From an uncultured Gammaproteobacteria bacterium (GTDB lineage: Bacteria; Patescibacteriota; Patescibacteriia; PEXW01): a stretch of DNA of 64,000 nucleotides. Below, piece by piece: positions 9,707-57,688 of the stretch (its first letter is position 1; every line of letters begins with the position of its first letter). Below the pieces are notes generated by a model, which was given only the letters and a program-made list of their open reading frames with translations, searched no databases and was not told the origin of the DNA. The stretch covers positions 129,656 to 193,655 of the forward strand of contig CAZAMC010000002.1 in assembly GCA_964486505.1 (NCBI GenBank). Reading direction: 5' to 3'. Made by a program: the position numbers and the translations under genes.

Positions 9707-9709
9707 ACT

Positions 9710-10734: not shown

Positions 10735-10748
10735 AGCCCACGTTTCCT

Positions 10749-11519: not shown

Positions 11520-11529
11520 CGTACTTTCC

Positions 11530-12321: not shown

Positions 12322-12331
12322 CGTCACTTCT

Positions 12332-31518: not shown

Positions 31519-31961
31519 CCTTAGCGCAGCGTATTGAGGCCGACCTGACGACGGCACTGAAGGCCCACCAAGCCCAACATGTGGAGGTGCTTCGATTCCT
31601 GAAGAGCAGCCTCCAGAATGCCAAGATTGCGAAGCGTGATGACCTCACCGATGCTGACGTCGAGAAAGCTATTGCGACCGAGGTGAAGCGCCGTACGGAA
31701 GCCGTGGAGCAATTTCGGGCGGGTGGCCGCGAGGAGCTCGCTGCGGCCGATGTCGCCGCCATCGATATCTTGAAAGTCTACCTCCCGCAACCGCTCACCG
31801 AAGCCGAGATTGCAGCACTGGTTCAGGCACAGGTGCAGGCTACGGGTGCCAAGGGCCCGGCTGACTTTGGCAAAGTTATGGGGCCGGTCATGGCCCAGGT
31901 CGGTACACGGGCGGACGGCAAAGCTGTCCAAGCTGTGGTCAAGAAGGTTCTTACCCCCTAA
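31515..31961 (+). CDS. yqeY: GatB/YqeY domain protein
   Basis: Typical S21-YqeY pairing; whole-length YqeY similarity. Confidence 0.8.
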   Translation: MTLAQRIEADLTTALKAHQAQHVEVLRFLKSSLQNAKIAKRDDLTDADVEKAIATEVKRRTEAVEQFRAGGREELAAADVAAIDILKVYLPQPLTEAEIAALVQAQVQATGAKGPADFGKVMGPVMAQVGTRADGKAVQAVVKKVLTP

Positions 31962-32010
31962 AGCATCTCCTCTCCATTCATGCACTGCTGTTCGCTTGTC
32001 GGCACGCAGC

Positions 32011-35000: not shown

Positions 35001-38000
35001 CGGCGATGTGTGCACGGGCGCAATTTGCAACGTTGCCTTGCGGACATGTGAACCGCGGGTACTCACACTCCAATCTGGCTCACAGACTGGCACCGCGGTG
35101 AACGGCCCAGCGGGGAATATGATCAACGTTCGCGGGTGTTACTTTGGCGGCGGCATGGGTGCGAATGGCAAAGTGACCTTCACGAACGGCGGGAACATTG
35201 CTGACGGCAGCTTTGCTATCTGCGGCCCAGCCGGCTGGACGAATGACCTCATTCGCGTCCAGGCCATGCCCGATACTGATCCGCCCGCCTCAGCGAACAC
35301 CATCTGGAGCGTGCAGGTGTTGGCCGATAATGGCTTAGGCAGCAACAACGACACCACCTACACCATCAGCTCCCAGTGTACGACCCCAACGAATGGCACG
35401 ACGTCTGTTCCGGGAACGGGCGTGCCTATCCTTTGTGGCACCCTGCCACCTGCCGGTCGGGAAGGGGATGCGATTCAGTACCAAGGGGCGCGTTTCACGG
35501 CGAGTAGCGAGGCCTTCTTCTCCGAGGCGAATGGCCCGCTCAATCAGCTGCCCCTTCCGGGCGCAGCCACTACGGTAACCCCGCCGAGCACCGCTATGAG
35601 CCACGTCGCCGTGGATACCGGTATCCCGACTGGTGGTACTACCGCGGCGACCACGATTGGCGTACCCACTGGGGGAGACTTCTGCATTGCCACGCCGGTG
35701 GACTTTAGCGTGAGCTGCACCCAGAACAGCGAGTGTGGCACCACTGGTTGCTGTGTCGGTAACGCGTGCCGACCGACCGCTGTGTGTACCAATGGGCTTA
35801 TCAGCGGTATTACGCCGGGCGCCGGCACGCTCCAGTGCCGCAACCAGAATTTCGTCGTCACGTTCAACAAGTCCATGCGCCCAGAGACGGTGACCAACAC
35901 CACCGTCTACCTCTACGACGCCAACACAAATGCCCCAGTGCCAACCTCGTTCGCCTTTGACGGAACCAACGCCACCTTTACTGCTACCGATGCGCTTCCG
36001 AATGGGACCTACCGCATCCGCGTCGTGGGTGGGTCCGCGGGTGTGACCGCCACCGACAACACGTTCCTCCCCGCTGACTACGTGTGGCCGCAAGGGGCGG
36101 GAGTCTACACAGTGGATGCATCGTCACGAGTTTGCACTGTTGCACGCGTGAACATCCTCGAAATCCCCCCGCAAACAGTAATTACGCAAGATTTGTTCAC
36201 TTGCACCAGCGATTCGTGTGCCGGCGACGACGATCCGGTTGCTGGGAATCAACATCGCTACCGCGTGGCTGCGTATGACAGCCAGGATAACGAGCTCGGT
36301 CTCGCGAACCAATCGTGGGTAGAAGCAGATCCCGCAGGCGGGACGTACGCCTCGTCACCGGCGGGTACGTACTGCCCCGGGAATACGACGAGTAGCTTCT
36401 ACTGTGCTCTAGCGCGGAATATTCCAGAGGGGACCGAGCAACTAACCGTGAACATCACCGCAACCCAGAGCGCCGGAACGGGTACGGCGAGCATGCCCAT
36501 TCGCGCGTACATGTGCGCCAGCCCCTGGCCGGCGCCGCCTGCCTGGCCGTTCCGCGATCCGGACACCGGCACTGAACCCACGCACAACTTTACCTTCTCC
36601 TTCTGTCGCGATGGGGGAGTGAATGGGTATACCCTCAGCAACCCCATTCCGAGCTTGGCGCCGACGGGCAACATCCGGAAGGAGTACATCATGGCGGTTC
36701 TTGATGATACGGGTCGCAACATTGGCGATGCGATTGGTATCCGTATTGAGTCAAACCTGCGAGATCTCTCACCCACGCGCTGGTACAACCAGAAGTTCGA
36801 TCCGGATACGGGTGGTGGGGTTACGGAGGTTGACGGGTACCCCGCCCTCCGTGAAGGTCGGACAGTGTACGTGACTGCCGACAACTACGCGCCGCAAGAC
36901 GCGGCCCGGCCATGGTCGTACCCCAATGTCTACGTGGTTTCCCACACGGCGAATCCGCGCCCCGAAACCGTGGCGATCTTTGACCAGATTTTGAAGAACC
37001 TGAAGTTCAATGACGAGGCTACACCGTTACCGCAGCAGCTCCTCAGTGACCTTCGCTATGACGTGAAGCGCATCCACGCCTACAGCGAGATCGTCTACGC
37101 CATTCAGGCCTACAAGGAGGCGCACAACGGTGCTTTCCCCAACCTCGAGTCCGGCTCGTACTTGAAGAACCTCACCATGACCGCCTGGCCATCCTGGCAA
37201 GAGAACCTGGGTGCCCAGATTGGCATTACCATGCCGCAGGATCCGCAGAAGCTCTGGGACCCCCAGACCACACCACGACAGGCACCCGCCATGTGCGGCA
37301 CGGGCTTCGACCAGAATACGTGCTGGAATGAGGAGGACAAGGTTGCGCAATTCCCGAATCGCAGTCCCTATACCGGCACCGCGCCGCGGGAGTCTACGGG
37401 CATGATTTACCGTTCTGGTCCGGTGGGCTCCAACACGTCACCGTTCCACCTCATTGGCACGGTCAGCGACCACTTTGTCTGGCACTACTTGAATAGCGGT
37501 TTCATGGATGCGTGGTTGGATTGCATTGATATTACGAACAAGGCAACCGACGTGTGTCCAGGTGATTCTGTTTGCACTGGCTTCAACATGGCCCTCTGCT
37601 CAGATTCTTTCGGCCGGATTAACGCCCTGCGCAACCCATCGCCGGCTGACAGCACGCAGCCCACCATTGCCAGCGTAGAACCCGCATCGGGTACTCGCCT
37701 CGGTGGCACGGTGCAGTTTAAAGTTTCGGCGAGTGATAATCCCGGTGGGAGCGGTATTGGTCGGGTGGAGTTCGTGGTGCGACGCGGCGGGGCGATCGTG
37801 GCCCAGAGCACGTCAAGCCGACCGGATAGGGATGGCAAGTACGTTTGGTCGTGGGACTCACGGACCGTATTGAATAATACTGGGTACAGTTTGACCGTCA
37901 CGGCATTCGACGTCGCGGGGAACGCGGCGGTGTTCGCTCCCGCCCCGACCTACGAAGTCGCAAACGCACCCGGTGATCCAACCGCCCCGGTCATTACCCT

Positions 38001-40302
38001 CGGGAACCCGAATGCCAATGGTTACGTATTCACCGGCGCCGACGTGACGCTCACTGCCTCGGCCACGGACAGCGGCGGCAGTAATACGGGCGTTAGCCAC
38101 GTAGACTTCTACCTCGGCACGTCCCGCCTTGGACAGGCTCCAGACCCAGCGTGCACGACGGGCTGTCCGGGCTCCTTTAACGCTAGCGTTGCCGTTCCGG
38201 GTTCGACCATTCGGACCTTCCCGAATGGAAGCTACACGTATTCGGTGGTGGCGTACGATGCGTATGGTAACTCCAGCATTCGGCAGCTCTCGGTGAGTGT
38301 GAACGTGCTGCCAGAAACTACTCCGCCGGCGGTGAGCTTCGTATCACCCGATCCGGCGCCGGGCATTAGCGGTAGCACTGCCAACGTCGTCGTTTCGGCC
38401 ACTGACGCGAGCGGCGTCAACCGGGTTGAGATATTCATCGGTACAGAGTCCACTCCCCGAACAACCGACGTGGCCTCTCCCTACACGTACACGTGGCCCC
38501 TCGCTGGGTACGTCGATGGCCAGACCTACACAGTGCGGGCCGTAGCCTATGACCGATACGGGAACAACGCGACCGCGACGTTGAATGTCCAGTACCATGC
38601 TTCCGCAGGACCCGACATTGAGCGACCAACAATCACCGATGTGACAGTTGAGCTGCAGAGTGGTTCGGTGGTGCCAATGGAAGGGGCCTCGCTGGAGGAA
38701 CTGGTGCACCTCCGCGCCACCTTCACCGATAACGTCGCTATCCAGAAAGCCGAACTACGCATTGATAACGTACCGATCCCGTTAACGGGCAGTGCGTATA
38801 CGCCCGTGACACCGCCGCGAGTGTTCGCCATGAACTACGGCTGGAACACCCTGCCCGAAATCCTCGGGCCGCACACGGTTACCATAACCGCGTACGATAC
38901 AACGAATAATGCCACCACGATTACCCGCTCGGTTTCGGTGAATAATCGGGCGTCGTTAGAAATTACTACACCACGACCGGGCGCCACCGTTGCTGATAAT
39001 CCCACGGTACCTATTACCCTCAATATCACCCGAACCTGTGATGGGACACTCCGCATGTCACACGTGTACCTCGGACTCATGGGTGAGCCGCTCGCCTTTG
39101 CAGATCTGACCACGTGCAACCGTACCTGCACGTACAACTGGACTTCCCGCAATACGACGGCCAATGGTCCCCAGACGCTCTGGGCAATTGGCTACGACGC
39201 AACGGGTTGTTGGGGTGGCAGTAAAGTAGCCATTGTGGTGAACAACGCGACGAACGACACCACGCCGCCCACTATTGATGCGAATGTCACGTTCGACGGT
39301 ACGCCGTGGCCGGGGAGTGGGCCGTACTACGTCAATCGTGCGGGCACCATTACTGCGCTAGCTGACGACAATAATGGCGGTAGCGGCTTAGCGGAGGTGC
39401 GCATTGAGGTGCAGCAGAGTGGCACGACGCTCTACTCGCAGTCGTGTACTTCGGCCCCCCAAAGCCCATGCCAGTTAACCTGGAACATTCCCGCCGACCA
39501 CACCCAAGATGGGGCCTACACGGTTGTGGTGAATGCCAGTGACGTAGCAGGGAACGATGCCCCGGCCGTAACCAAGACGGTGAATGTGGATACGGGCGCA
39601 CCGACGGCCGCCTGGGTTGGGCCTGCTTCTGGCACGACGGTATTTAGTCCGGCAACTATTACCATGCAAGCCAGCGGCACTGATCCGCAGTGGAACAGCT
39701 ACGCATCCGGCATTAGCCGCATCGAGTACTTCAACGGTGCAACCCGTATTGCCACGGGCTCCATCGAGAATCCGGGTGGCAGCGGGATCTACCCGGCTAT
39801 TCTATCCGCGGTTGGAACCTACCAGGTCATTGCCCAGGTGTTTGATAACGCCAACAACATGTCGGCGACGGCACCGGCAACAACCCTCACCATTAGCGGA
39901 GCCGATACGACACCGCCCAACGTTAGCATAACGAATCCCGCCAATGACAACTGGTTCTGGAGTGGCATTATGTCCGTCGTTGCATCGGCAACGGATGCCG
40001 GCTCGGGGATGCGTGATGTGCAGTTCTACCTGGATGGCGTGCCCTTTGGGCCGCTGGACACTGCGAGTCCGTACTGGGTTGATTGGAATACAACCCTCTA
40101 TGCAAATGGTCAAACTGTGAGCTTCACAGCACGAGCCTGTGATAATGCCGGGAATTGTGCAACGTCCGCTCCCCGTTTAGCCCGGGCGTGGAATGGTGCC
40201 GGCGCCATTTGCCGAACCAATATTTGCTCTGGTTCAACGCCCAACTGCTGCAGCGGGACCTGCCAAGCGCAGGCCTGTGCGCAGCAAGAGCCACAACTGT
40301 AA
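32011..40302 (+). CDS. Giant (2764 aa) cell-surface protein: N-terminal T4SS-pilin (TrbC/VirB2)-like membrane hairpin, IPT/TIG domains, Cys-rich knots, eight tandem Ig-like repeats, Cys-rich C-terminal tail
   Basis: ATG at 32011 (MPTTNPNARRAFLLGLSGTLLAVVGL...). The ORF-track start 31810 is a TTG extension overlapping yqeY and is rejected. N-terminus ...VKWALGLLGLVAIIVMLYGGFLWMTSRGNEKQIEKAKRTLINGAIGLVIILVSWAIV matches the two-helix pilin-like domain common at N-termini of candidate-phyla-radiation giant proteins. TIG-like PVITSVTTP...VVVRGSNFG and PHITGIYPREGKAGRFVTIFGENFG. Confidence 0.85.
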   Translation: MPTTNPNARRAFLLGLSGTLLAVVGLFLLAQVTNAITVEDVGGTLGLGNADLKQTIVNVVKWALGLLGLVAIIVMLYGGFLWMTSRGNEKQIEKAKRTLINGAIGLVIILVSWAIVLFIQRFITNATGNAQASGQCQMSLPAEWGYCNLCDDTLDPRPDFGFLVPDPSCITPDSNTYYADWQNPVHEEADVSLCSAVSAHFTGLTPAAANDISISSTFPVTDGSGNSPTHTVNFFGPTAEFVHPTEDFLPNTQYSVDVNGIISSDGTAATQPPGGWTFTTGTTSDEDPPTVSLTAPTNNETIQCLSPVIEVRFSESMLASSMYNPANFRITPADAAVARIDMPRSDTLQITLDKPLVKNRTYTITLNADTDPNATGGFYSGYKDTCINALDGDSDGTAEDGDGQPNTLPPDDDFSWVFTTADTDTVDCTPVITSVTTPAYHGNPTDPNRVVVRGSNFGLTPRVRFSGNVLATDIGGTNSLCFDDNNIPQRTGSPACIHTDPAIPTPTSARIDAMVPTGPLAYAPNGAMTGPVTVEVAGRSSPPSSNVEVRSPHITGIYPREGKAGRFVTIFGENFGVNGRVRFRIPGGSNLLASTPSCSSTPWSDTQILVQVPEGFTFGDTTFIQVDTDTYADVRGMSNLAQFDIRDVSGPNLCSINPSSSNDPSASLDALGDGFGTNPAVVSTRYSSFAGNLVSLTDDQHLRAAPGAPLANGTYNFFVTVNGVASNPLQYRIPRDPAPAVVFDSSCSTSVPVIRSPNPLPDTADACRNLGVAVRFTESMNPAAAGGTTDPTLFYVSRCNNTATFDPAACSGTVNGTRANATYNQSDDLVAFAPAGDRFDDGYWYQVTVKAGIPSAAGALLPQDVVWHFRVRETGGDCQAEAVGVTPPQIGPLATGQSGVFTALATNNSCSILLGLPGDFNWSSSDTSMASDPTESTVPAGAQPADNTGTTTVQPGSIDGTANISATYSGLTGSGNLIVQRNYCETNTDCATRTNSYGDVCTGAICNVALRTCEPRVLTLQSGSQTGTAVNGPAGNMINVRGCYFGGGMGANGKVTFTNGGNIADGSFAICGPAGWTNDLIRVQAMPDTDPPASANTIWSVQVLADNGLGSNNDTTYTISSQCTTPTNGTTSVPGTGVPILCGTLPPAGREGDAIQYQGARFTASSEAFFSEANGPLNQLPLPGAATTVTPPSTAMSHVAVDTGIPTGGTTAATTIGVPTGGDFCIATPVDFSVSCTQNSECGTTGCCVGNACRPTAVCTNGLISGITPGAGTLQCRNQNFVVTFNKSMRPETVTNTTVYLYDANTNAPVPTSFAFDGTNATFTATDALPNGTYRIRVVGGSAGVTATDNTFLPADYVWPQGAGVYTVDASSRVCTVARVNILEIPPQTVITQDLFTCTSDSCAGDDDPVAGNQHRYRVAAYDSQDNELGLANQSWVEADPAGGTYASSPAGTYCPGNTTSSFYCALARNIPEGTEQLTVNITATQSAGTGTASMPIRAYMCASPWPAPPAWPFRDPDTGTEPTHNFTFSFCRDGGVNGYTLSNPIPSLAPTGNIRKEYIMAVLDDTGRNIGDAIGIRIESNLRDLSPTRWYNQKFDPDTGGGVTEVDGYPALREGRTVYVTADNYAPQDAARPWSYPNVYVVSHTANPRPETVAIFDQILKNLKFNDEATPLPQQLLSDLRYDVKRIHAYSEIVYAIQAYKEAHNGAFPNLESGSYLKNLTMTAWPSWQENLGAQIGITMPQDPQKLWDPQTTPRQAPAMCGTGFDQNTCWNEEDKVAQFPNRSPYTGTAPRESTGMIYRSGPVGSNTSPFHLIGTVSDHFVWHYLNSGFMDAWLDCIDITNKATDVCPGDSVCTGFNMALCSDSFGRINALRNPSPADSTQPTIASVEPASGTRLGGTVQFKVSASDNPGGSGIGRVEFVVRRGGAIVAQSTSSRPDRDGKYVWSWDSRTVLNNTGYSLTVTAFDVAGNAAVFAPAPTYEVANAPGDPTAPVITLGNPNANGYVFTGADVTLTASATDSGGSNTGVSHVDFYLGTSRLGQAPDPACTTGCPGSFNASVAVPGSTIRTFPNGSYTYSVVAYDAYGNSSIRQLSVSVNVLPETTPPAVSFVSPDPAPGISGSTANVVVSATDASGVNRVEIFIGTESTPRTTDVASPYTYTWPLAGYVDGQTYTVRAVAYDRYGNNATATLNVQYHASAGPDIERPTITDVTVELQSGSVVPMEGASLEELVHLRATFTDNVAIQKAELRIDNVPIPLTGSAYTPVTPPRVFAMNYGWNTLPEILGPHTVTITAYDTTNNATTITRSVSVNNRASLEITTPRPGATVADNPTVPITLNITRTCDGTLRMSHVYLGLMGEPLAFADLTTCNRTCTYNWTSRNTTANGPQTLWAIGYDATGCWGGSKVAIVVNNATNDTTPPTIDANVTFDGTPWPGSGPYYVNRAGTITALADDNNGGSGLAEVRIEVQQSGTTLYSQSCTSAPQSPCQLTWNIPADHTQDGAYTVVVNASDVAGNDAPAVTKTVNVDTGAPTAAWVGPASGTTVFSPATITMQASGTDPQWNSYASGISRIEYFNGATRIATGSIENPGGSGIYPAILSAVGTYQVIAQVFDNANNMSATAPATTLTISGADTTPPNVSITNPANDNWFWSGIMSVVASATDAGSGMRDVQFYLDGVPFGPLDTASPYWVDWNTTLYANGQTVSFTARACDNAGNCATSAPRLARAWNGAGAICRTNICSGSTPNCCSGTCQAQACAQQEPQL

Positions 40303-45703: not shown

Positions 45704-46192
45704 ATGAAGTGCCCTGCTTGTCACAAACCTGATACGCGTGTGATGGATTCCCGGCTTGTTGAAGACGGGATGGCCATTCGCCGCCGCCGAGAGTGCAACC
45801 GGTGCAGCTTCCGCTTCTCGACCGTGGAAGAGGCCGAAATCCTCAACCTCGCCGTGGTCAAGCGGGACGGCCGACGTGAGCCGTATAGCCGCGAGAAGCT
45901 TGAAACCGGTCTGCGGCGCTCTTTCCAGAAGCTCCCCATCACTCAGGACGAGTTCAAGCGCCTGGTGAACCGCATTGAACGAGACATTCAGATTACCGGC
46001 CGGCAGGAAATTACCTCCCACGCTATTGGAGAGATCGTCATGCGCCACCTGAAGCGTGCTAACCAGGTTGCCTACATCCGTTTTGCCTCGGTGTACCGGT
46101 CCTTCAAAGATGCTGAGACCTTCCAACGTGAGCTCAAAGGCCTTCTAAAGCCCAGCCGCGCGCGCGCCACCCGGTCCCGCCGCCGCACCTAA
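45704..46192 (+). CDS. nrdR: Transcriptional repressor NrdR
   Basis: [18 protein letters not shown] zinc ribbon + ATP-cone. Confidence 0.9.
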
Positions 46193-46242: not shown

Positions 46243-49200
46243 ATGCCGAACGTTACCCTCCGTGAGTCTACGACCCTGACCGCAACGGAGCGCTACCCGG
46301 CACATGGTTTGCGCATTACCCGCCGTCATACTACTGCCGGCACCGATCCGCTCTCGCAAGTGCAGTACGAAAAGCGGACCTCGGTCATCAAGGGCACAGA
46401 CGGCCGCATCCTGTACGAAATTACCGACGTGGAAGTTCCGGTAACCTGGTCTCAAGTGGCTACGGATATTTTGGCGCAGAAGTACTTCCGCAAAGCGGGC
46501 GTGCCCGTTGTTGACGAGCACGGCGCACCGGTGCTGGATGCACAGGGGAACGTGGTGACCGGATCGGAGAAGAGCGCTGCTCAAGTCGTGCATCGCATGA
46601 CGCAGTGCTGGCGCTGGTGGGGCGAGCAGTATGGGTACTTTGCCTCGCCGGAAGACGCCCAGGCCTACCAGGATGAAATGGCATACTTCCTCATCCACCA
46701 GATGGGCGCGCCGAACTCGCCGCAGTGGTTTAACACGGGTCTGCACACGGCCTACGGCATCACCGGCCGGCCCCAGGGGCACTACTACGTTGTGCCAGAG
46801 ACCGGGGAAGTGGTGAAGTCGGAAGACGCCTACACCCACCCCCAGCCGCACGCCTGTTTCATCCAGAGCGTAAACGATGACCTGGTTGGCGAAGGCGGCA
46901 TCTTTGATCTCGTTACCCGCGAGGCCCGCCTTTTCAAGTTTGGCTCGGGAACCGGCAGCAACTTCTCCAGTCTCCGCGCCCGCGGTGAGAAGCTTGGCGG
47001 TGGCGGTACTTCCTCGGGCATGATGTCGTTCCTTCACGTCTTCGACAAAGCCGCCGGCGCTATTAAGAGCGGCGGCACCACTCGCCGCGCGGCCAAGATG
47101 GTCATTGTGAACGTTGACCACCCCGACGTGGAAGAATTTATTAGCTGGAAGGTGAAAGAAGAGCAGAAGGTTGCCGACCTCGTGACCGGCAGCAAGATTA
47201 ATGCGCGCTACTTGCAGGACATCATGGCGACCGCTCACGCGGAAGGAGCCACGAGCATCGGTCAGTCGGCCAAGCTCAAAGCCGTGGTGCAGCAGGCAGT
47301 GCAGCGTAACGTCCCACTCAACTACATTGCCCGCGTCTTGGATTTGGTTCGCCAGGGCCAGAAGACTATCGATTTCCCCGTGCTCGATACCCACTTCGAA
47401 GGGGAGGCGTACGCCACGGTATCGGGGCAGAACAGCAACAACACCGTGCGCGTCACCAATGACTTCATGGACGCGGTGCGCGTGAATGCCCCCTGGAACC
47501 TCACCGCACGCGTGAGCGGGGAAGTTGTGAAGACCGTGCCTGCCCGTCAGCTGTGGGACCAAATTAGCTACGCGGCGTGGTCCTGCGCTGATCCGGGTTT
47601 GCAGTTCGATACCACGGTGAACGAGTGGCACACCTGCCCGGCGGACGGCCGCATCAACGGGTCTAACCCGTGCAGCGAGTACATGTTCCTGGATGACACG
47701 GCGTGCAACCTCGCGTCCATGAACTTGGCCAAATACCTGGATGCTGAAGCCGGCCACTTCGACGTCGATAGCTACCGCCATAGCATTCGGCTGTGGACCA
47801 TTACCTTGGAGCTCTCCGTGCTCATGGCGCAGTTCCCCGGCAAGGAGATTGCCCGCCGCAGTTACGCCTACCGCACGCTCGGCCTTGGCTACGCCAACCT
47901 GGGCACCGTGCTCATGACCATGGGCATTCCCTACGATTCCGAAGAAGCGCGGGCTATCGCCGGCTCCCTCACGGCCATTATGACCGGCGAGAGCTACGCT
48001 ACGAGCGCCGAAATGGCAAGTGTCGTTGGTTCTTTCCCGGCCTACGAGCGCAACAAGCGCCACATGCTCCGCGTTATCCGCAACCACCGCCGGGCCGCCT
48101 ACGACGCGCCCGCGGACGAGTACGAAGGCCTCACCATTACCCCGCAGGGCATTGATCACACGGCGGTTCCGCCCTACCTCGGTGATGCCGCCAAGCTGGC
48201 CTGGGACCGGGCCATTGCCCTGGGCGAGCAGCATGGCTTCCGCAATGCGCAGACGACGGTCATTGCGCCCACCGGCACCATTGGCCTCATCATGGATTGC
48301 GACACCACGGGTATTGAACCCGACTTTGCCCTGGTGAAGTTCAAGAAACTCGCTGGCGGCGGCTTCTTCAAGATTGCTAACCAGTCCATGGCCACTGCTC
48401 TGCGCCGCTTGGGCTATACCGAAGCGCAAGTACGGGATATGGAGAACTACGCCAAAGGTCACGGCACGCTGGATGGTTGTCCGACGATTAACCCCGAAGT
48501 GCTTGCGCAGAAGGGGCTCAATGAAGCCGATCTAGCCAAAGTAGAGGCGAGCCTGAAGACCGCGTTCGACATTCGTTTTGCCTTTACGCCGTTTGCCCTG
48601 GGCGAAGAGACGCTGAAGCGCGTTGGCCTCACCGACGAGCAGCTAGCCGACCGCGAGCTCAATGTCCTGAAAGCCATTGGCTTCTCGGATGCGGACATCG
48701 CGGCGGCGAACGAGTACGTCTGCGGCACCATGACCATTGAAGGTGCGCCCCACCTGAAACCCGAGCACCTGCCTGTCTTCGACTGCGCCAACAAGTGCGG
48801 CGCCAAAGGTACCCGGTATATCCCGTACGACGCGCACCTCAAGATGATGGCCACGGCCCAGCCCTTTATTTCCGGCGCCATCTCTAAGACCATCAACATG
48901 CCCAACGAGGCTACGCTCGTGGACATCGACGCCGCCTACCAGAAGAGCTGGAAGTACATGCTCAAAGCCGTGGCGCTCTACCGCGATGGCTCGAAGCTCT
49001 CGCAACCGCTCAACAGCCTTTCGGGCCTGGATGAGATTGGCCAAGCCGAAACCCAAGAGGAAGAGGTGAATGAGCAGGTTACGCCTCAGCAGGTGAGCGA
49101 CGCCACGGCGGCGCAAGCGGCAGGCCAGGCCATTCGCCGCGCCTTGCCCAACAAGCGGCACGGGTTTGTGCAGAAGGCCTACGTGGGCGGGCACAAGGTG

Positions 49201-49764
49201 TACCTCCGCACGGGCGAGTACAACAACGGCCAGCTCGGCGAAATCTTCATTGACATGTACAAAGAGGGGACGGCCTACCGCAGTCTGCTTTCGATGTTCG
49301 CCATTTCCATTTCCAAAGGTTTGCAGTACGGCATCCCGCTGGAAGAGTACGTGGACACCTTCACCTACACGCGCTTCGAACCAGCTGGCCCTATCCAAGG
49401 CCACGACAACGTGAAGATGGCTACGTCAATTCTGGACTACGTCTTCCGCGTGCTGGGCTTTGAGTACCTGGGCCGCACCGACCTGGTGCACGTGAAGCCC
49501 GAGCCCAAGGAGAAGACCATGGACCTGCATACCCCCGCTCCGGTGCAGCAAGCCACTCTGCCCATTACCGTGCAGACCGCAGCGCAGAAAGAAGCCGTGA
49601 AGAGCAACGTGAGCTTTGGCATGGAGCAGGTGGAAGCCAAGCACGAGGCGCGGCAGCAGGGCTTTACCGGCGACCAGTGCGTGGCCTGCGGGAGCATGAA
49701 GATGAAGCGCAATGGCACCTGCATCCTTTGCTTAGACTGCGGCGAGACCACCGGGTGTAGCTAG
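46243..49764 (+). CDS. nrdJ: Class II (adenosylcobalamin-dependent) ribonucleotide reductase, long form (1172 aa) with C-terminal Cys4 zinc ribbon
   Basis: [21 protein letters not shown] active-site region, B12-dependent RNR architecture, C-terminal [27 protein letters not shown]. No intein motifs seen. Confidence 0.85.
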
Positions 49765-49812: not shown

Positions 49813-50424
49813 TTAGGAAAGAAGTTTTTTTGGATGACGTTGGGCAAGGAGGCCAACACCACCATGGAGTATGAGACAGAGGACTGGGTACACCAGTTGG
49901 TACGGCCCATCATCTAATCGCGGGTCAAATTTCCATTGCAGGAAGATGGCCGTGAGGCTGAATACGTAGGCGCCGCTCCAGAGGTACCAGGGAAGGACGC
50001 GCTGTTCGGTGGTGGGGTCACGCCAGACACCACGGTAGGTTGGATAAAACGAGATGACGATGGGGATTTGCAGGAGGAGGTACGCTGCTTTTGAGCTCTG
50101 GAAAATAATCCATACACCTGCAGCAATGCAGCCAAAGGTGAGCGCCGTGACCTCGTACCGGTCGAGAGCTTTGAACTTCCCCAGTCGGAGCGCATTGAGG
50201 AAAAGGTACAGCGTCACCACGGTGCTCACGAGGGGTAGCGCGCTCTTAATGACATCATGCGTACTCGCGAGGTAGGTGGCGCAATTTAGTGTGCTCAAGA
50301 TAACCCAGAGCGTCCACGTTGCTGGATTGGGTGTGGATGTACCCCGTCTCATATTCCGGTTGTAAAGGAAAACTGCCGCGACATGCATCAACGCGGCAAT
50401 AATTGCAAACGTTGCTGCAAGCAC
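49813..50424 (-). CDS. Polytopic membrane protein (about 6 TM), uncharacterised
   Basis: Hydrophobic helices throughout; no recognisable family. Confidence 0.45.
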   Translation of the reverse strand: MLAATFAIIAALMHVAAVFLYNRNMRRGTSTPNPATWTLWVILSTLNCATYLASTHDVIKSALPLVSTVVTLYLFLNALRLGKFKALDRYEVTALTFGCIAAGVWIIFQSSKAAYLLLQIPIVISFYPTYRGVWRDPTTEQRVLPWYLWSGAYVFSLTAIFLQWKFDPRLDDGPYQLVYPVLCLILHGGVGLLAQRHPKKLLS

Positions 50425-50665
50425 AACAATCCTTTCGTTTTGGGTTTGTGTTAGCCGATGAGTCTAGCAAAAATGAAGATATTGTCAATCAGCTGGATAT
50501 GGATAGAGCGGACCGGGGAGGCCCGCCCTTTTGCATTGACAAAACCAGCAACTGGCGTTACATTGCGAGGCCTGTTCTTTGACACTCGGCCAGCGGAAGG
50601 CTGGCTGGTTAGCCCGTAACCAATTCTGGCGGAAGGCCAGAGAGTATGTGAAAGGAGGTACCCGC

Positions 50666-51613
50666 ATGCGGTACCAAACGTCCACGCGCGTGCAGCAGTT
50701 GCAAGCGCAGTTCCCTGAACTCCAACACATCATCCCGCGCTTCAAGCGTGGCGATGGTCCGCAGCACCGTATTCGCATCCTGGTGCAGCGGGCCGATCCG
50801 GCCTTCTTGTACACGTATGCAGAGACGGCAGATGGCGAGCGCAGCCACTGTGAGCCGTTGCCGAAAGAAACGCATCTGCAGGGTTGCATCGCTACGCGTT
50901 ACAAGCACCTGTTCTTCGTCTTGCCGGATGGCACGATCGACAGCCAGGTTACCTGGGAAGACTTCCACGCGTCGTACTGCATTGATTTTCTGCGTAAGCG
51001 GAAACACTTGCTGCCGACGCTGAGTCGGGTGGTCGTGCTCGCCGTGCTCACGTGGTACAAGCGGCAGGACCCGCTTACTACCATGAGTTACCTCGGTGCG
51101 TACCAGAGCACTGATCTGGAGATCACCATCCACCAAGCGCCGACGTGCGGGTGGTCGGAACTCGTCGCCACCACAGACTTGAGCAAGAACGTACCGATGG
51201 GCTTTCGGGATCTCATCGTCGCGGGTTGCCGCTACGAGCGCCCAGACGTGAGACGCTACAATGACGCGCTCACGGAGATTGCTACGCTGTTTAGCACCCA
51301 GGTATACGCCAATGGTTTGAAGACGCTCATTGACGCGTCGAAAATCGCGGGTATGTCCGGTATGTTCAACGGCGTGGAGCTCATGAGTTGGGTTTCCGCG
51401 GGGCGCATTCCCATGACGGTGCAGCGCGGGAACATTGATGTAACGTTCAAATCCCTCGAAGGCGAGTACTACGAGGCCGGTGTGCACAGCATGCACGGGA
51501 CGGTAGAGGAAGTACGCGCGCTCGTGAACGACCTGGTTGCTGGCTGGACGGCGCTCTCGCAGGAGCAGCGCGCTAGCCAGTATAAGGACAACAAGAACGT
51601 CAGCATGTTCTGA
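50666..51613 (+). CDS. Hypothetical protein (315 aa), no recognisable domain
   Basis: ATG at 50666 preceded by a strong SD AAAGGAGGT. TTGACA-17-TACATT promoter-like at about 50537..50565. Confidence 0.5.
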   Translation: MRYQTSTRVQQLQAQFPELQHIIPRFKRGDGPQHRIRILVQRADPAFLYTYAETADGERSHCEPLPKETHLQGCIATRYKHLFFVLPDGTIDSQVTWEDFHASYCIDFLRKRKHLLPTLSRVVVLAVLTWYKRQDPLTTMSYLGAYQSTDLEITIHQAPTCGWSELVATTDLSKNVPMGFRDLIVAGCRYERPDVRRYNDALTEIATLFSTQVYANGLKTLIDASKIAGMSGMFNGVELMSWVSAGRIPMTVQRGNIDVTFKSLEGEYYEAGVHSMHGTVEEVRALVNDLVAGWTALSQEQRASQYKDNKNVSMF

Positions 51614-51620
51614 TCATTGC

Positions 51621-51648
51621 AAAAGGACTGTCGCAAGACAGTCCTTTT
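51621..51648. terminator. Bidirectional terminator (perfect 12-bp stem); second hairpin at 51660..51684
   Basis: aaaaggactgtc-gcaa-gacagtcctttt, and agagcag-[11 nt]-ctgctct. Confidence 0.65.
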
Positions 51649-51702
51649 CATTTCGAAGAAGAGCAGGCCTGGAAGGTCTGCTCTCTTAAAAGGTGCTGGG
51701 GG

Positions 51703-52134
51703 CTAGAACTCCGCCTGCAAGGTTTGGCACAGTTCCACCACGTCCTGCTGGGGCAAGGGATCGGGCACGCCAATGAGCCCGAAGATTTTGGCCCCACGGA
51801 ACTCCACGGCAAGGTCAGCGGCGCGGGGAATGAAGTGCACGTGGACGTGCTCGTGGCCCGGGGCCTCGGCCAAGCAGATGATGTACTCCTTCGTGCAGCG
51901 AAAGTGCGCGTGGAGAATGGAAACAATTTTTGGGGTGAGCTCCTGGAGCTCCGAAAATTCTTGGACCGTTAGCTCGTGGAGCGCGGCGGCGTGGCGCTTG
52001 AGCACTAGCACGAGCCAGCCCCGAACTTTCACTGGGTACGTGTGCTCCAGTACCCAGTACTCGCCGTTGTAAATTGCTTCACCTGGTGAAATGCGATGCA
52101 CGCCCGAAAGTGACGCGCAGGTTTTGCATTCCAT
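51703..52134 (-). CDS. HIT-superfamily protein with N-terminal CxxC
   Basis: HEHVHVHFIPR histidine triad. Own promoter TTGACA-17-TAGAGT (minus strand, plus-strand coordinates about 52166..52194) and SD GAGGAGG. Confidence 0.65.
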   Translation of the reverse strand: MECKTCASLSGVHRISPGEAIYNGEYWVLEHTYPVKVRGWLVLVLKRHAAALHELTVQEFSELQELTPKIVSILHAHFRCTKEYIICLAEAPGHEHVHVHFIPRAADLAVEFRGAKIFGLIGVPDPLPQQDVVELCQTLQAEF

Positions 52135-52252
52135 GGTTGTCCTCCTCAGTATTTGTTTTCGTATGTTGCACGCTACTCTATGGTTTCTTCACTGCTTTGT
52201 CAATGTGAGAATGAAAAAGAGCGAGCTGGGGCGGCTCGCTCTTCGGTAACGA

Positions 52253-52615
52253 TCAGCTCGTCGGTTGCTGCGTGGCACTGCGCTGCCAAACGCGCTTGAA
52301 GGCAAGGGCCAGGCCAATGATGACGGCTACAGCCCACGCAAGTGTGAGGATCAGCTGCGCCTCTTTGGGGAACGCGTACACCAGGTAGCCGAGCGGGAGC
52401 ACCGTGGCGGCGACGCCCATCCAGAAGGGTGCAGTCTTCTGCGCCTGCGTGCCGTTTATCCAGGCAACGCCCAGGCAGAAGCTGCCACAGAGAATGGTAT
52501 AGGCGAGCGTGACCCAGAATGCGCCGCCAAGTTCGATTGCGGCTTGGAAGCCGAGCAGGAGCATCCCGGCGCCAAAGCCGGCGCCCCAACGTACTCTTTT
52601 CCAGGAAAACTGCAT
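52253..52615 (-). CDS. Small membrane protein (120 aa), uncharacterised
   Basis: 3-4 TM helices. SD GGAAGGAG upstream; minus-strand terminator (agagcgagc...gctcgctct + T-run) downstream at about 52205..52234. Confidence 0.45.
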   Translation of the reverse strand: MQFSWKRVRWGAGFGAGMLLLGFQAAIELGGAFWVTLAYTILCGSFCLGVAWINGTQAQKTAPFWMGVAATVLPLGYLVYAFPKEAQLILTLAWAVAVIIGLALAFKRVWQRSATQQPTS

Positions 52616-52719
52616 GCGATCTCCTTCCTGTGGAACGGTGTGTTTTGTTCAACCCTGCCACGCGTGGCGCTGCATGTCAATGGAAAAGAAGCCACGCGGT
52701 GTACACGTGGCTTCTGCAC

Positions 52720-53127
52720 TTAGGCCTCGGCCGATTCCTTCAGGCGGTCGAGGATGTCGGGGAACTTTTCGTCTACGTCTTCCAGAATCGCCATCTTCGC
52801 CACAATTCGGTCGAAAATTTCGTAGCGGTAGCTGGCGAACAAACGGAGGACCGTGGCGAGATCTTCGTACTCCGCATTCCCCAGGGTGTGTACCCAGAAG
52901 AGGTACTCAATGTACACGTGGGGCACTTCCCGGATGGGGATGAGAACCGAGAGGACCGCACACGGTGTCAGGTGTTCCAGGGCTTCGCAGGTCATGTCCG
53001 CCAGCGTCGTCTGGTGGCGCACCACTCGGGGCACGTGCTCCTGGTAGAGCTCGTAGATTCTCTCGTACGAAATGGGCTCTGTTGCGGTAAGCGTCTGGAG
53101 CGATTCGTGGAAGGACAGTTCAGCCAT
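52720..53127 (-). CDS. Hypothetical soluble protein (135 aa)
   Basis: ATG at 53127 with SD GGAGG. Terminator hairpin gaagccacg...cgtggcttc + T-run downstream (about 52670..52705). Confidence 0.4.
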   Translation of the reverse strand: MAELSFHESLQTLTATEPISYERIYELYQEHVPRVVRHQTTLADMTCEALEHLTPCAVLSVLIPIREVPHVYIEYLFWVHTLGNAEYEDLATVLRLFASYRYEIFDRIVAKMAILEDVDEKFPDILDRLKESAEA

Positions 53128-53231
53128 GCATCCTCCTTTCACGGACGTTTCTTTGTTCACACTCTGCCGGAGTCCTCACGAGCCGTCAATAGCAAAAAAA
53201 GACCGCTTCGTTCCCGAAGCGGCGAAATAGG

Positions 53232-53579
53232 TTAGGCAGGGGCATTTGCTTTGGATGTTTCTCGCGCAGCGCGAGAGCGCTTGGTGGTGAGCATCCACAG
53301 CCGGATTGCAATGAACATGCTAGCAACAGTTACCCAGGCCAGAATGCCGAGGGCAACGTGCAGGCCCCACGCCAAGGAGAAGGGAACGACCACGCGGTCA
53401 TCAAGTGCCCGTTGGGCAAGCATGGTGAAGTGGCGTGAACTTCGGTACCCCGGCTCTTCATTATCGAGAATGATGTAGAGCGGCCAGGAAAAGAGCACCC
53501 AGAGCTTCCAGCGAATCCACAGGCACGCAATGCCAAGGTACAAGAGGAGACCCAGAACCCATGACCAGATCATACACAC
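53232..53579 (-). CDS. Small membrane protein (115 aa), uncharacterised
   Basis: SD GGAGGTG. Upstream promoter TTGACG-16-TAGGAT on the minus strand. Terminator ccgcttcg...cgaagcgg + T7 downstream (about 53195..53225). Confidence 0.45.
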   Translation of the reverse strand: MCMIWSWVLGLLLYLGIACLWIRWKLWVLFSWPLYIILDNEEPGYRSSRHFTMLAQRALDDRVVVPFSLAWGLHVALGILAWVTVASMFIAIRLWMLTTKRSRAARETSKANAPA

Positions 53580-53683
53580 CTCCGTTTGTGTTCGTTTCTA
53601 TCCTACACAGGCTCGCCTGAGCGTCAAGACTGCGGAAAAAGAAAACCGCCCCAGGGGTGCAGGCGGTTTGTCGACGGAGCTGC

Positions 53684-53989
53684 TCACTGTGTCGACTTGA
53701 CCAGGCGCACCGGTATTGGTGCGGCTTCCGGCATGGGCGCGGGCGCATCCAGGCGCGGGCCGACCGTGGACCACAGGTGCGGGTAGAGGGCGATGCTGCC
53801 CAGGATGGTCAGGATGCACGTGATGGCCGCAAATACTTTGGCCACCATCGTACCGAAGATCATCCCGAATGCAGCGGCGAGGGCGGTCGCCAGGCAGATG
53901 GCGACGAAGCAGAAGGCACACTTGAGGAAGGTGTTGCTTTCCCCTAAGCGGTCCATCGCGTTGCTAAAGAGCGTGAAGCTTTTCTTCAC
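53684..53989 (-). CDS. Small membrane protein (101 aa; GTG start), uncharacterised
   Basis: SD AAGGAGG 5 nt upstream of GTG. Two TM helices. Terminator aaccgcc...ggcggtt + T-run downstream (about 53640..53670). Confidence 0.4.
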   Translation of the reverse strand: MKKSFTLFSNAMDRLGESNTFLKCAFCFVAICLATALAAAFGMIFGTMVAKVFAAITCILTILGSIALYPHLWSTVGPRLDAPAPMPEAAPIPVRLVKSTQ

Positions 53990-54164
53990 TAGTACCTCCT
54001 TGTAGGTGTCTCTTTTTGGAACTGGACACCGTACACCGGGGTTGCCGATGTGTCAAGGGTACATACTCCCGGTCTGGAGGGTATTTCCAGGCGTTAACAC
54101 CAGTGTGCCAGTGTTTGCATATGAAAGCCCTCCACCGAAGTGGAGGGCCAGAAGAAGGAGGAGA

Positions 54165-54956: not shown

Positions 54957-55156
54957 AAAGTATTTGTAAAGACGAACCGGATACCCTAGCACGGCCGCCC
55001 GAATCCGTCAAGGCTGGGACACTGGAGGAGTCTGGAAAAAAAACGGCCCCAGCGCAGTCGACTTCCACACCACTAGGGGGAGAGTGGGTGGAATGCGCGT
55101 GGGGCCGGGGAAATGCACGAGTTGTATTTTTTCTTCGTTCTCGTACTCTACAAGGC

Positions 55157-55744
55157 ATGGCTCCTATGGTCAAACGCATTGCCCCCAAACGCCTGCGACC
55201 ATTCCCCCACGGCATTACCGTGGCGTACATTGGCGATGGCAAAGGAAAAACCACAGCCGCGGTTGGCGTGGCGACCCGTGCCATTGGCTATGGGTGGAAG
55301 ACCTTATTCTTCCAGTTCTTCAAGAGCCCCCAGTGGCCCTCGGGGGAGCGAGACGCCTTGCGGAAGCTGGGTGCCACGGTGGAAGTGCATGGCGAAGGCT
55401 TCGTTGGTATTCTGGGCGATCGCAAAGACCTCCGAGAGCACCAAGCGGCGGCTCGCGCTGCGCTCCAGCGGGCCTGGCGCCACCTGACGTCGGGACAGTA
55501 CCAACTCGTGGTTCTCGATGAAGTCATTTCCTGCTTGGAGCAGAAACTTTTCCCAGTAAGTGCTCTCGTGCAGTTTCTGCAGAAGCGGCGCCACCACGCC
55601 AAGGCCAAGAATGTCCACCTCGTGCTCACCGGCCACCAAAAATTTCCCGCCGTCCTGCAGCTGTGCGATGTGGTTTCGGAAATGAAAATGGTGAAGCACC
55701 CTTACTACAAAGGTTTCATTGCCGTGAAGGGGATTGATTACTAG
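55157..55744 (+). CDS. cobA: ATP:cob(I)alamin adenosyltransferase (CobA/CobO/BtuR type)
   Basis: ITVAYIGDGKGKTTAAVG P-loop and overall similarity to CobA/BtuR (...LDEV...VLTG...VKGIDY). Confidence 0.75.
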   Translation: MAPMVKRIAPKRLRPFPHGITVAYIGDGKGKTTAAVGVATRAIGYGWKTLFFQFFKSPQWPSGERDALRKLGATVEVHGEGFVGILGDRKDLREHQAAARAALQRAWRHLTSGQYQLVVLDEVISCLEQKLFPVSALVQFLQKRRHHAKAKNVHLVLTGHQKFPAVLQLCDVVSEMKMVKHPYYKGFIAVKGIDY

Positions 55745-56477
55745 CATGCGGCGATTCGTACTCGGCACGGGTATCGTCGTTGTCTTTAGCGTACTCACGG
55801 GGTGTGCCGCGACAACGATCAATCAGAACCTGCACCAAGCCGTTGCCGATGCGAACGTGGTCAGTAACCAGAACGTGAATAGTACCGTGCCAGTGAACGT
55901 GCCTCTGAACGTGAACACCGCCACACATGTGCAACCAACACCCGCGAATACGAACGTGCAGTTACCCGCTGCACTCGTAAGCCCGCTTGACCAAAGAGCC
56001 GAGCGCGTTACGAAGAAGCTGTTTGGCACGTACATCACGCCCGCAACCTCGCCCATCCAGCCCGAACGCTTCACTGGCTACCACACTGGCCTCGACTACG
56101 AGACGTTTGCAAGTGAAGCAAAGTTGGATGTGCCCGTCGTGGCGGCGTGCACAGGGAAAGTCCGGGCTCGGCAGACCGTGTCTGGCTACGGTGGCGTGCT
56201 TGTCCAGCAGTGCGTGGTGGCCGGACAGACTGTCACGGCCCTCTACGGCCACATTCGCTTGTCGTCGGTGAAGGCGAAGGTTGGCACAGAGCTCAAAGCT
56301 GGTGCGCAGTTCGCCGTTCTTGGTACAGGTTTTTCTTCAGAGACGAGCGGTGAGCGCAAGCACCTCCACTTCAGCCTGCATAAAGGCGCGACGATAAACT
56401 GGCGTGGGTACGTGGGCTCGAAAGCCGCGTTGGGGGAGTGGTTGGATCCATCGCCACTTTTTTCGCAGAGTATTTAG
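55734..56477 (+). CDS. M23-family (LytM-like) metallopeptidase lipoprotein
   Basis: Lipobox LTGC, N-rich linker, GYHTGLDY...HLHFSLH M23 zinc-ligand motifs. Confidence 0.75.
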   Translation: MITSMRRFVLGTGIVVVFSVLTGCAATTINQNLHQAVADANVVSNQNVNSTVPVNVPLNVNTATHVQPTPANTNVQLPAALVSPLDQRAERVTKKLFGTYITPATSPIQPERFTGYHTGLDYETFASEAKLDVPVVAACTGKVRARQTVSGYGGVLVQQCVVAGQTVTALYGHIRLSSVKAKVGTELKAGAQFAVLGTGFSSETSGERKHLHFSLHKGATINWRGYVGSKAALGEWLDPSPLFSQSI

Positions 56478-56724
56478 GCGTTTTGTCCCTTCCCACCGGG
56501 GTGTGCTACACTCTGGAGGCTTTGACAACCAAGCAGGTAAGCCGGTGAGAATCCGGTACGGTCCCGCCACGGTATCCCGACCCAGCATTGGGTGCAGGGG
56601 AGTCCGACGCCTATCCTGCGTTCCGCAGGATGAAGACAAATCCTTCGGGAAAAGGTCGAACAAGGATGGATATATCCTGCGACTGCCCTGATGTTGCAGG
56701 TTTTTCGTAACTAGCAAATTTTTT

Positions 56725-57135
56725 ATGGATCAACAGCAACCGGTTATGAAGAAGCAGCGTTCCCTATGGTGGCTCGTCGTACTCGTTGTGGCTGCTTTGG
56801 GCGTGAGCATATGGTCGTGGGTAAGCAAAGATAGCGCGAACAGCAATACTGCCCCGACCAATACCGCAACGCAGAACGTTAACGTTGCGCCCACAACATA
56901 CACGTACCCAGGCCAGGATGGGAAGAATGCCCTCGAACTCCTGAAGACTGCCTACCCGAATACGACCACCAAGACGTCGAGCCTGGGCGAGTACGTGACG
57001 GCGATTAATGGCGTCGAGGCGGCGAGTAACCAGGGCTGGGTGTACACCGTGAACGGCGCTGAAGTGACAGTGGGTGCAGACAAGTACGTCACCAAGTCGG
57101 CCGATATTGTTGAGTGGAAGCTCACTTCGTTCTAA
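56725..57135 (+). CDS. Secreted DUF4430 (transcobalamin-like C-terminal domain) protein
   Basis: Signal/TM anchor, N/T-rich linker, ...SLGEYVTAINGVEAASNQGWVYTVNGAEV...DIVEWKL matches the DUF4430 pattern. Confidence 0.5.
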   Translation: MDQQQPVMKKQRSLWWLVVLVVAALGVSIWSWVSKDSANSNTAPTNTATQNVNVAPTTYTYPGQDGKNALELLKTAYPNTTTKTSSLGEYVTAINGVEAASNQGWVYTVNGAEVTVGADKYVTKSADIVEWKLTSF

Positions 57136-57145
57136 GTCCACGTCT

Positions 57146-57688
57146 ATGCGTCTTCGCCCCCTCCTTACTCCGACGAACCTCATTGCTTTCAGCTTGGTAG
57201 CCTTTGCGGCAGTGGCGCGGTTCTTGCCACACCCGCCGAATTTTGCACCGGTGGCCGCGATTGCCCTGTTCAGCGGAGTGTACCTCAGCAAACGCGTGTC
57301 GCTCGTCGTGCCCTTCGTCGCCATGGTCATATCCGACGTCTTCCTGGGCTTCCACAGCACGATTGGCTTCACCTGGGGCGGTATGATTCTGGTGGGGCTC
57401 ATTGGCTGGGCCGTCCAGAAACGGAAGACGGTCGCTACCGTTTTCGCCGGTGCGCTCGGGGCTTCGGTAACATTCTTCCTGCTTACGAACTTCGGGGTAT
57501 GGCTGGTTGGCAATATGGGCATGTACCCCAAAACACTTCCTGGTTTACTGGAAGCGTATACCATGGGCTTGCCGTTCTTCCGGAATACCCTGGCTGGTGA
57601 CCTCTTCTACGTGGCAGTTTTCTTTGGGGCTGCGGAGTTGGCCTTTGCCTGGGCACGCCGGCGGGCACGCATTGCCTCACATACCTAG
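57146..57688 (+). CDS. Polytopic membrane protein, possible ECF-transporter S-component-like substrate carrier
   Basis: Internal Met MRLRPLL.... 5-6 TM helices. Family assignment is tentative. Confidence 0.35.
   Translation: MRLRPLLTPTNLIAFSLVAFAAVARFLPHPPNFAPVAAIALFSGVYLSKRVSLVVPFVAMVISDVFLGFHSTIGFTWGGMILVGLIGWAVQKRKTVATVFAGALGASVTFFLLTNFGVWLVGNMGMYPKTLPGLLEAYTMGLPFFRNTLAGDLFYVAVFFGAAELAFAWARRRARIASHT

Follow-up and report, generated by a model that had tools for sequence, protein, structure and literature searches.

A putative CbrS/CbrT-type cobalamin salvage module with a DUF6580 membrane protein in a Patescibacteria genome

Two bacterial routes for the uptake of cobalamin (vitamin B12) are the closest described systems to the locus presented here. 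In the first, cobalamin is transported by the energy-coupling factor (ECF) transporter ECF-CbrT, with cbrT located in a nrdJ-cbrS-cbrT-pduO cluster; the structure 6FNP is that of the ECF-CbrT vitamin B12 transporter of L. delbrueckii, and cobinamide, like cobalamin, is bound and transported by CbrT (Santos et al. 2018, PMC5997447). The second is BtuM of Thiobacillus denitrificans (PDB 6FFV), which was first predicted because its gene co-localises with btuB, occurs in bacteria without ECF modules and is presumed to work by itself (Rempel et al. 2018, PMC6072759). Here we describe a 64,000-nt stretch of contig CAZAMC010000002.1 (the window, whose positions serve as coordinates throughout), in which the genes for NrdJ, CobA, a DUF4430 protein and a DUF6580 membrane protein, together with a predicted cobalamin riboswitch, most likely constitute a cobalamin salvage module of a Patescibacteria bacterium that serves the B12-dependent NrdJ, with putative functions for the DUF4430 and DUF6580 proteins.

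The likeness to the first of these systems lies in the gene order. Around CbrT, the genes of L. helveticus encode a class II ribonucleotide reductase (RNR, 744 aa), a DUF4430 protein (136 aa), CbrT itself (PF12822) and a PduO-type adenosyltransferase; because of this order, the position of cbrS is taken by the DUF4430 gene, and we infer that CbrS is a DUF4430 protein. The names cbrS and cbrT are said to go back to Rodionov in 2009. The window DUF4430 protein matches the L. helveticus protein in the cbrS position (BLASTP E 3e-5), and on the strength of this match and of the L. helveticus gene order the window module appears to repeat the logic of the known cluster with other S-component and adenosyltransferase families. 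The best matches of the window proteins are found in metagenome-assembled genomes of Patescibacteria. In what follows, L-numbers stand for the genome loci compared and P-numbers for homologous proteins. The parts that concern the module are as follows.

45704-46192, + strand: NrdR transcriptional repressor, upstream of nrdJ and in the same place in L085-L087 (Pfam Zn_ribbon_NrdR E 5e-19, ATP-cone E 2e-23)
46243-49764, + strand: NrdJ, class II adenosylcobalamin-dependent ribonucleotide reductase (Pfam Ribonuc_red_lgC E 1e-124, Ribonuc_red_2_N E 4.5e-36, TSCPD)
55157-55744, + strand: CobA/BtuR-type ATP:cob(I)alamin adenosyltransferase, 195 aa with the ATG at 55157 as start (PF02572 E 1.9e-49)
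55734-56477, + strand: M23 peptidase, overlapping the end of cobA by 11 nt (PF01551 E 1.9e-10)
56497-56633, + strand: predicted cobalamin riboswitch aptamer, a compact variant below the Rfam gathering threshold (RF00174, 25.7 bits)
56634-56712, + strand: putative expression platform, with a candidate intrinsic terminator at 56676-56705 and a competing long hairpin
56725-57135, + strand: DUF4430 protein (CbrS-like), 136 aa (PF14478 E 4.3e-15)
57146-57688, + strand: DUF6580 membrane protein of 180 aa, beginning 10 nt downstream of the DUF4430 stop codon (PF20221 E 1.7e-49); the open reading frame (ORF) that holds it opens at 57074

In its AlphaFold2 model (predicted local distance difference test, pLDDT, 94) the DUF6580 membrane protein is all-helical, and the top matches in a fold search against the PDB are the S-components RibU, FolT, BioY and ThiT, with TM-scores of 0.53-0.64 and probabilities of 0.97-1.0. 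A search with the single sequence against the PDB gave no matches; a profile of 36 family members, searched with E-values up to 10, returned 6FNP_A as its only match (E 2.3e-4). The matched segment of 6FNP_A (130 residues) recovers an L. delbrueckii-type protein at 99% identity, the homologues of which in lactobacilli are named 'ECF transporter S component', and CbrT homologues carry PF12822. Aligned with the CbrT family by HHalign, DUF6580 reaches a probability of 95.2% (E 2.8e-8, 146 columns), and both families share an invariant R...P-N-x-x-P motif and an M..S[DN]..LGF motif. R25, H29, N32, S63, D64, H70, N115, W119, R146, N147 and D152 are among the invariant residues of DUF6580. One DUF6580 homologue, P0072, carries both PF20221 and PF12822. 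According to model and profile, DUF6580 has six membrane helices in the ECF S-component fold and is remotely homologous to CbrT, and we propose that it is a cobalamin transporter. The initial annotation of this stretch, made from its letters alone, had suggested an ECF-type S component; the S-component fold and the kinship with CbrT bear this out, and the family turned out to be DUF6580 and not ECF_trnsprt.

DUF6580 is a large family, with 6,537 cluster representatives at 50% identity (E up to 1e-3), and its members are named 'DUF6580 family putative transport protein' by NCBI. A literature search returned no paper that mentions DUF6580 or PF20221, and no experimentally characterised member. 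Membership of the BtuM family was considered and rejected: the DUF6580 profile misses 6FFV at E-values up to 10, the alignment of 36 sequences contains no invariant cysteine, and the best 50 fold matches do not include 6FFV.

With regard to the DUF4430 protein, the initial annotation had recognised the family in the strings GEYVTAING, GWVYTVNG and IVEW and had related it to the transcobalamins. All three strings are present in the translation, which scores 56.3 bits against PF14478 (cutoff 23.8) over profile positions 1-71 of 72, and the structural comparison agrees with this relation. The AlphaFold2 model consists of a single hydrophobic helix at the N-terminus (13-32), a low-confidence, low-complexity linker rich in Asn and Thr, and a domain at 57-136 with pLDDT >90. 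The 19 best fold matches in the PDB are all beta domains of transcobalamin, haptocorrin or intrinsic factor, or the DUF4430 protein 3U7Z from structural genomics; the root-mean-square deviation is 1.4-1.8 Å over ~76 residues for nearly all of them and the probability 1.0 throughout. A profile of 28 homologues likewise matches only transcobalamins in the PDB (best E 1e-3). The single sequence gave spurious Kelch-repeat matches only, driven by the low-complexity linker, and this search was set aside. As modelled, the domain has the transcobalamin beta fold, and from fold and context we propose that the protein is a cell-surface B12 catcher. In the homologues P0136 and P0137, an apparent lipoprotein-type cysteine motif (LAAC and LVAC, respectively, identified by eye) replaces the putative anchor helix, which fits a surface-tethered protein. 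NCBIfam holds no model for either DUF4430 or DUF6580. A literature search for PF14478 found nothing, and no B12-binding measurement for a bacterial DUF4430 protein; we know of no such published measurement for any of them. In human transcobalamin, the isolated beta domain binds cobalamin and cobinamide by itself (PMC5599065).

A longer relative of the DUF4430 protein was observed in three loci. In the Patescibacteria-type operons of L036 (4190-5926), L050 (3049-4899) and L055 (3107-4984), an extra protein of ~600 aa is encoded upstream of DUF4430-DUF6580 and combines an alpha/alpha-toroid region (prenyltransferase / squalene-hopene cyclase-like) with a DUF4430 domain, a two-domain architecture like that of a complete transcobalamin. 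In L055 this gene lies directly behind an AdoCbl riboswitch (RF01482, 57.6 bits).

The adenosylcobalamin cofactor has its consumer in NrdJ, the Ribonuc_red_2_N domain of which is described in Pfam as 'class II vitamin B12-dependent RNR'. Upstream of cobA and on the same strand, nrdJ ends at a distance of 5.4 kb, in line with the B12-dependent nrdJ that had been placed some 5 kb from a cobA adenosyltransferase with the P-loop GDGKGKTTAA. This string is present in the CobA translation, and the modified P-loop G-x-G-K-G-K-T-T is characteristic of CobA. Within an ORF spanning 55088-55744, the probable start is at 55157, and the product scores 168.6 bits against PF02572 (cutoff 25.7), aligned to positions 3-172 of the 172 in the profile. 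The NCBIfam scores lie under the equivalog cutoffs (TIGR00708, 139.9 vs 167.75 bits; NF004637, 145.2 vs 185), so that strict equivalence cannot be claimed; judged by its sequence, CobA is a divergent member of its family, and the PF02572 assignment stands. The conversion of cob(I)alamin to adenosylcobalamin is the established activity of this family. Orthologues of 193-195 aa occupy the same place in L085-L087.

The intervening M23 peptidase noticed in the initial annotation is indeed encoded between cobA and the DUF4430 gene. Of the six close genomes, three have its gene (the window, L002 and L087) and three do not (L001, L085 and L086); for this reason it was rejected as a part of the module and is regarded as an optional passenger. 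Between nrdJ and cobA (49813-54000) lies a variable island, in which most of the small genes run on the other strand. It encodes a 203-aa membrane protein, a 344-aa protein (50579-51613, + strand), a HIT-family protein (51703-52134) and several ORFs of 100-150 aa without a Pfam match; at the same site, L085-L087 contain different small ORFs and a DUF559 gene, and in more distant Patescibacteria nrdJ and cobA are adjacent.

Upstream of the DUF4430 gene, an Infernal search of 56480-56724 with permissive settings located an RF00174 match at 56497-56633, where a B12 riboswitch had been sought on the advice of the initial annotation. The match covers the full model (1-189) with 25.7 bits, corresponding to E 9.5e-5 when 401 nt are searched and to E 8e-4 in a search of 3.4 kb; the DUF4430 start codon lies 92 nt downstream of its end, on the same strand. 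The ~220 nt that begin with the aptamer and reach almost to this start codon are nearly invariant in five other genomes (L001, L002, L085-L087), across which the flanking DUF4430 and DUF6580 proteins are ~60-78% identical; the sequence further upstream of the aptamer does not align among these close genomes. RNAalifold places 35 pairs on the six aptamers, 7 of them with compensatory changes on both sides, for example in the terminal hairpin (CUGC/GCAG, CAUC/GAUG, CGCC/GGCG) and in a CCGG/CUGG hairpin; because the six sequences are closely related, this covariation represents few independent events. At the equivalent position, directly in front of DUF4430-DUF6580, matches above the gathering threshold are found in more distant Patescibacteria for RF00174 in L003, L016, L024 and L028 and for AdoCbl-II in L004, L012, L038, L062 and L065, along with sub-threshold matches in L002 (26.5 bits), L015 (29.4 bits) and L053 (30.8 bits). 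Conservation, covariation and the position in relatives thus support the prediction of a cobalamin riboswitch aptamer at 56497-56633, a compact variant of this lineage that is missed at the Rfam threshold.

Downstream of the aptamer, the candidate terminator at 56676-56705 consists of the arms CCUGCGAC (56676-56683) and GUUGCAGG (56693-56700) with a 9-nt loop, followed by UUUUU. The CCUGCGAC segment can also pair within a long alternative hairpin, which competes with the terminator and is favoured by minimum-free-energy folding. A simple terminator scan did not report the candidate because its 9-nt loop exceeds 8 nt. On this sequence evidence, the uptake genes are probably switched off by transcription termination when B12 is sufficient. 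Almost 100% identity was observed over the ~90 nt between the aptamer and the DUF4430 start in six genomes (the window, L001, L002 and L085-L087), which exceeds what a simple terminator would require. This platform could adopt either of two mutually exclusive folds, with no covariation to choose between them.

The comparative census, made with hidden Markov models, comprised 80 genome loci encoding DUF6580. DUF4430 lies immediately upstream of DUF6580 in 30 of them, all of the Patescibacteria type, and a TonB-dependent receptor is found within 1.5 kb in 32 (Ignavibacteriota, Bacteroidota, Omnitrophota and Proteobacteria); no locus has both neighbours and 18 have neither. About 25 loci encode NrdJ upstream of DUF6580 in the same orientation and about 14 encode CobA there, with a contiguous NrdJ-CobA-DUF4430-DUF6580 arrangement in L003, L016, L024, L028, L053 and L067. 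The order NrdR-NrdJ-...-CobA-(M23)-DUF4430-DUF6580 recurs in relatives with proteins ~60-78% identical, so that the grouping, described at first as suggestive, does not appear to be due to chance. The wider gene order of the window is common to the close relatives L085-L087.

At the gathering threshold, Rfam scans of 56 of the 80 loci detected cobalamin-clan riboswitches in 34, in 24 of which they lie upstream on the same strand. The riboswitch directly precedes DUF4430-DUF6580 or DUF6580 in L025, L026, L030, L031 and L034, and an operon of TonB-dependent receptor and DUF6580 in L010, L011, L017, L018, L022, L029 and L035. Pfam searches confirmed the TonB-dependent receptors. In L025, L030, L031 and L034 (Bacteroidota/Chitinophagaceae), two strong cobalamin riboswitches (75-109 bits) flank DUF6580, one preceding DUF6580 itself and the second a downstream TonB-dependent receptor. 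Four Patescibacteria-type loci contain a riboswitch just downstream of DUF6580 (L005:7163-7240, L019:7089-7213, L048:6432-6571, L077:6539-6611), and a further gene there would therefore be B12-regulated. With regard to taxonomy, L005, L019, L036, L044, L047 and L071 are labelled Gammaproteobacteria and L065 is labelled Nanoarchaeia, and all of them have the Patescibacteria-type NrdJ-(riboswitch)-DUF4430-DUF6580 arrangement; these labels probably stem from faulty binning or labelling. An AdoCbl-II riboswitch would be unusual in L065 if this locus really came from an archaeon.

Taken as a salvage module, the set suggests the following route. The DUF4430 protein would be tethered outside the cell membrane by its N-terminal helix, capture cobalamin with its transcobalamin-beta-like domain and hand it to the adjacent DUF6580. 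The latter would bind cobalamin and, toppling as S-components typically do, carry it through the membrane, after which CobA would adenosylate cob(I)alamin to adenosylcobalamin, the cofactor of NrdJ. The riboswitch in the DUF4430-DUF6580 leader would repress the uptake pair when B12 is plentiful. The capture, import and adenosylation set for B12 salvage that had been put forward at the outset is in this way supported as an interpretation by the folds, the homology to CbrT, the riboswitch and the synteny.

Several points weigh against this interpretation. The aptamer score of 25.7 bits is below the RF00174 gathering score of 31.5, and a scan of the whole window at the Rfam gathering threshold reported tRNAs only and no riboswitch. 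The E-values of the DUF6580 fold search are weak (0.05-1), though the probabilities are ~1; the profile match to CbrT in the PDB has an E-value of only 2.3e-4, and the window protein has no Pfam ECF_trnsprt (PF12822) match, PF20221 being its only one. The genes nrdJ and cobA are 5.4 kb apart, with unrelated opposite-strand genes between them. No EcfA or EcfT genes were found in the window or near DUF6580 in the 80 loci. For a related L. sakei system, ECF-like and with transcobalamin-like binders, heme uptake has been put forward (bioRxiv 10.1101/864751). Finally, we infer the functions of the DUF4430 and DUF6580 proteins, in both cases entirely, from sequence, modelled fold and context.

A first alternative keeps the module and changes its cargo, which would be cobinamide (an incomplete corrinoid) or a lower ligand, with the cofactor finished or remodelled in the cell; we regard it as unlikely. 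CobA-type enzymes accept several corrinoids, a property that would suit such a route. Cobinamide is conceivable as cargo because it is bound by both reference proteins, CbrT, which also transports it (PMC5997447), and the human transcobalamin beta domain (PMC5599065). Against it, neither the 64-kb window nor the 20-kb syntenic loci contain genes of the CobU/CobS/CobT/CobC type, and the only B12-related neighbours are CobA and NrdJ. The strongly reduced biosynthesis of Patescibacteria also argues against the completion of a corrinoid in the cell.

The heme proposal for L. sakei, which concerns Lsa1836-1840, leads to a second alternative, namely that the DUF4430/DUF6580 pair imports heme or another tetrapyrrole. 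This is very improbable: the pair lies behind a cobalamin riboswitch here and in many relatives and adjoins CobA and NrdJ, DUF6580 in two-membrane bacteria is found in or next to operons of TonB-dependent receptors under cobalamin riboswitches, and its nearest solved homologue is the B12-specific CbrT. A merely coincidental adjacency, with DUF6580 unrelated to B12 and the riboswitch a chance match, could appeal to the sub-threshold score and to a family without an experimentally characterised member or any mention found in the literature, and is strongly disfavoured, to the point of being barely credible, by the gene order conserved across Patescibacteria lineages, by the above-threshold cobalamin riboswitches within ~6 kb in 34 of 56 DUF6580 loci (the expectation for a random 10 kb is estimated at well under 0.1) and by an RNA with compensatory changes that is better conserved than the proteins on either side.

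Under the preferred reading of a cobalamin salvage module, DUF6580 would either be energised by an ECF module with genes at another site or, like BtuM, do without one. Within the 64-kb window there is no ABC (ATP-binding cassette) ATPase, no EcfT and no cob/cbi gene besides cobA; ABC-ATPase-like ORFs occur in 2 of the 88 sequences scanned, in neither case in an operon with DUF6580. To our knowledge, the two-membrane phyla with DUF6580 generally have no ECF modules. Because DUF6580 is frequent beside BtuB-like receptors in these phyla and has no ABC genes nearby, we lean, by analogy, towards a solitary function. In a wider and more tentative proposal, which we consider possible and would not yet call probable, DUF6580 may be a third widespread family of S-component-like B12 transporters that, as BtuM does, works with no ECF ATPase module and receives B12 from DUF4430, a tethered 'bacterial transcobalamin', in single-membrane Patescibacteria or from a BtuB-type receptor in two-membrane bacteria.

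If this is true, the partnership of a binder and an S-component would be ancient and common to two divergent families (CbrS-CbrT and DUF4430-DUF6580), which would contradict the textbook view that S-component transporters use no extracytoplasmic binding protein. A transcobalamin-beta-like surface protein would be a recurring partner of B12 S-components, with a bearing on the transport mechanism and on the origin of eukaryotic B12 carriers. For DUF6580, a large uncharacterised family, the locus provides a concrete function prediction. It also points to how ultra-small bacteria without corrin synthesis probably obtain B12 for their class II ribonucleotide reductase and hence for DNA synthesis, and bears on the dependence of Patescibacteria on hosts or communities and on attempts at their cultivation. 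Literature searches that combined Patescibacteria with cobalamin and riboswitch, or with ECF, found nothing. What is new here is a salvage cluster of the CbrS/CbrT type with DUF6580, a CobA-type adenosyltransferase and a compact riboswitch in Patescibacteria.

Apart from the module, the window also encodes a polysaccharide deacetylase, HtrA, glutamine synthetase and FtsA/FtsZ. A giant ORF of 2,830 aa (31810-40302), with a type IV secretion pilin domain at its N-terminus and numerous Ig-like domains of bacterial type (Big_7, Big_5, Big_13), probably encodes a surface or attachment protein. Genes for envelope redox and metal functions are clustered at 447-5661 and 7857-12958, among them a P-type ATPase for heavy metals, three DsbA-like thioredoxin paralogues, a membrane protein that joins a DsbD-like part to HMA and cupredoxin domains, and the prolipoprotein diacylglyceryl transferase Lgt.

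Compared with the described systems part by part, the window DUF4430 protein shares its fold with the beta domain of transcobalamin, haptocorrin and intrinsic factor (PDB 5NO0, 4KKI, 2BB5, 2PMV), with weak sequence similarity around GEYVTAING and conserved tryptophans. Unlike the complete transcobalamins, the eukaryotic members of which are soluble and taken up through receptors, the window protein is predicted to be membrane-tethered and comprises the beta domain only, with no alpha domain. With regard to the RF00174 cobalamin riboswitch (clan CL00101, which includes AdoCbl-II, RF01689), the window RNA shares the full-length match, the conserved core GCCGGUGAGAAUCCGG...GGUCCCGCCACGGUA, a B12-box-like GGGAGUCCGACGCC and the position upstream of putative B12 uptake genes; it differs in a peripheral extension of 16 nt where ~60 are expected and in the unusual invariance of its ~90-nt expression platform.

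BtuM resembles DUF6580 as a small six-helix membrane protein with the S-component fold, and its btuB context is matched in two-membrane bacteria, where riboswitch-controlled TonB-dependent receptors adjoin DUF6580 and no ABC ATPase is nearby. No sequence relation was detected between the two families, and BtuM binds cobalt through a cysteine, whereas DUF6580 has no invariant one.

The Lactobacillales nrdJ-cbrS-cbrT-pduO cluster differs from the window in its S-component family (PF12822 vs PF20221) and in its adenosyltransferase, which is PduO-type (PF01923) in the cluster and CobA-type (PF02572) in the window. The window host belongs to the Patescibacteria, and an ECF module is known for CbrT and none for the window organism; furthermore, nrdJ lies ~5 kb away in the window, with unrelated genes between, and a predicted cobalamin riboswitch precedes the window uptake pair, a comparison that is one-sided with respect to the riboswitch. 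The logic of both sets appears to be the same: each combines a class II RNR, an adenosyltransferase and a small, putatively membrane-anchored DUF4430 protein, 136 aa long in both, with a protein of the S-component fold encoded directly downstream of it.

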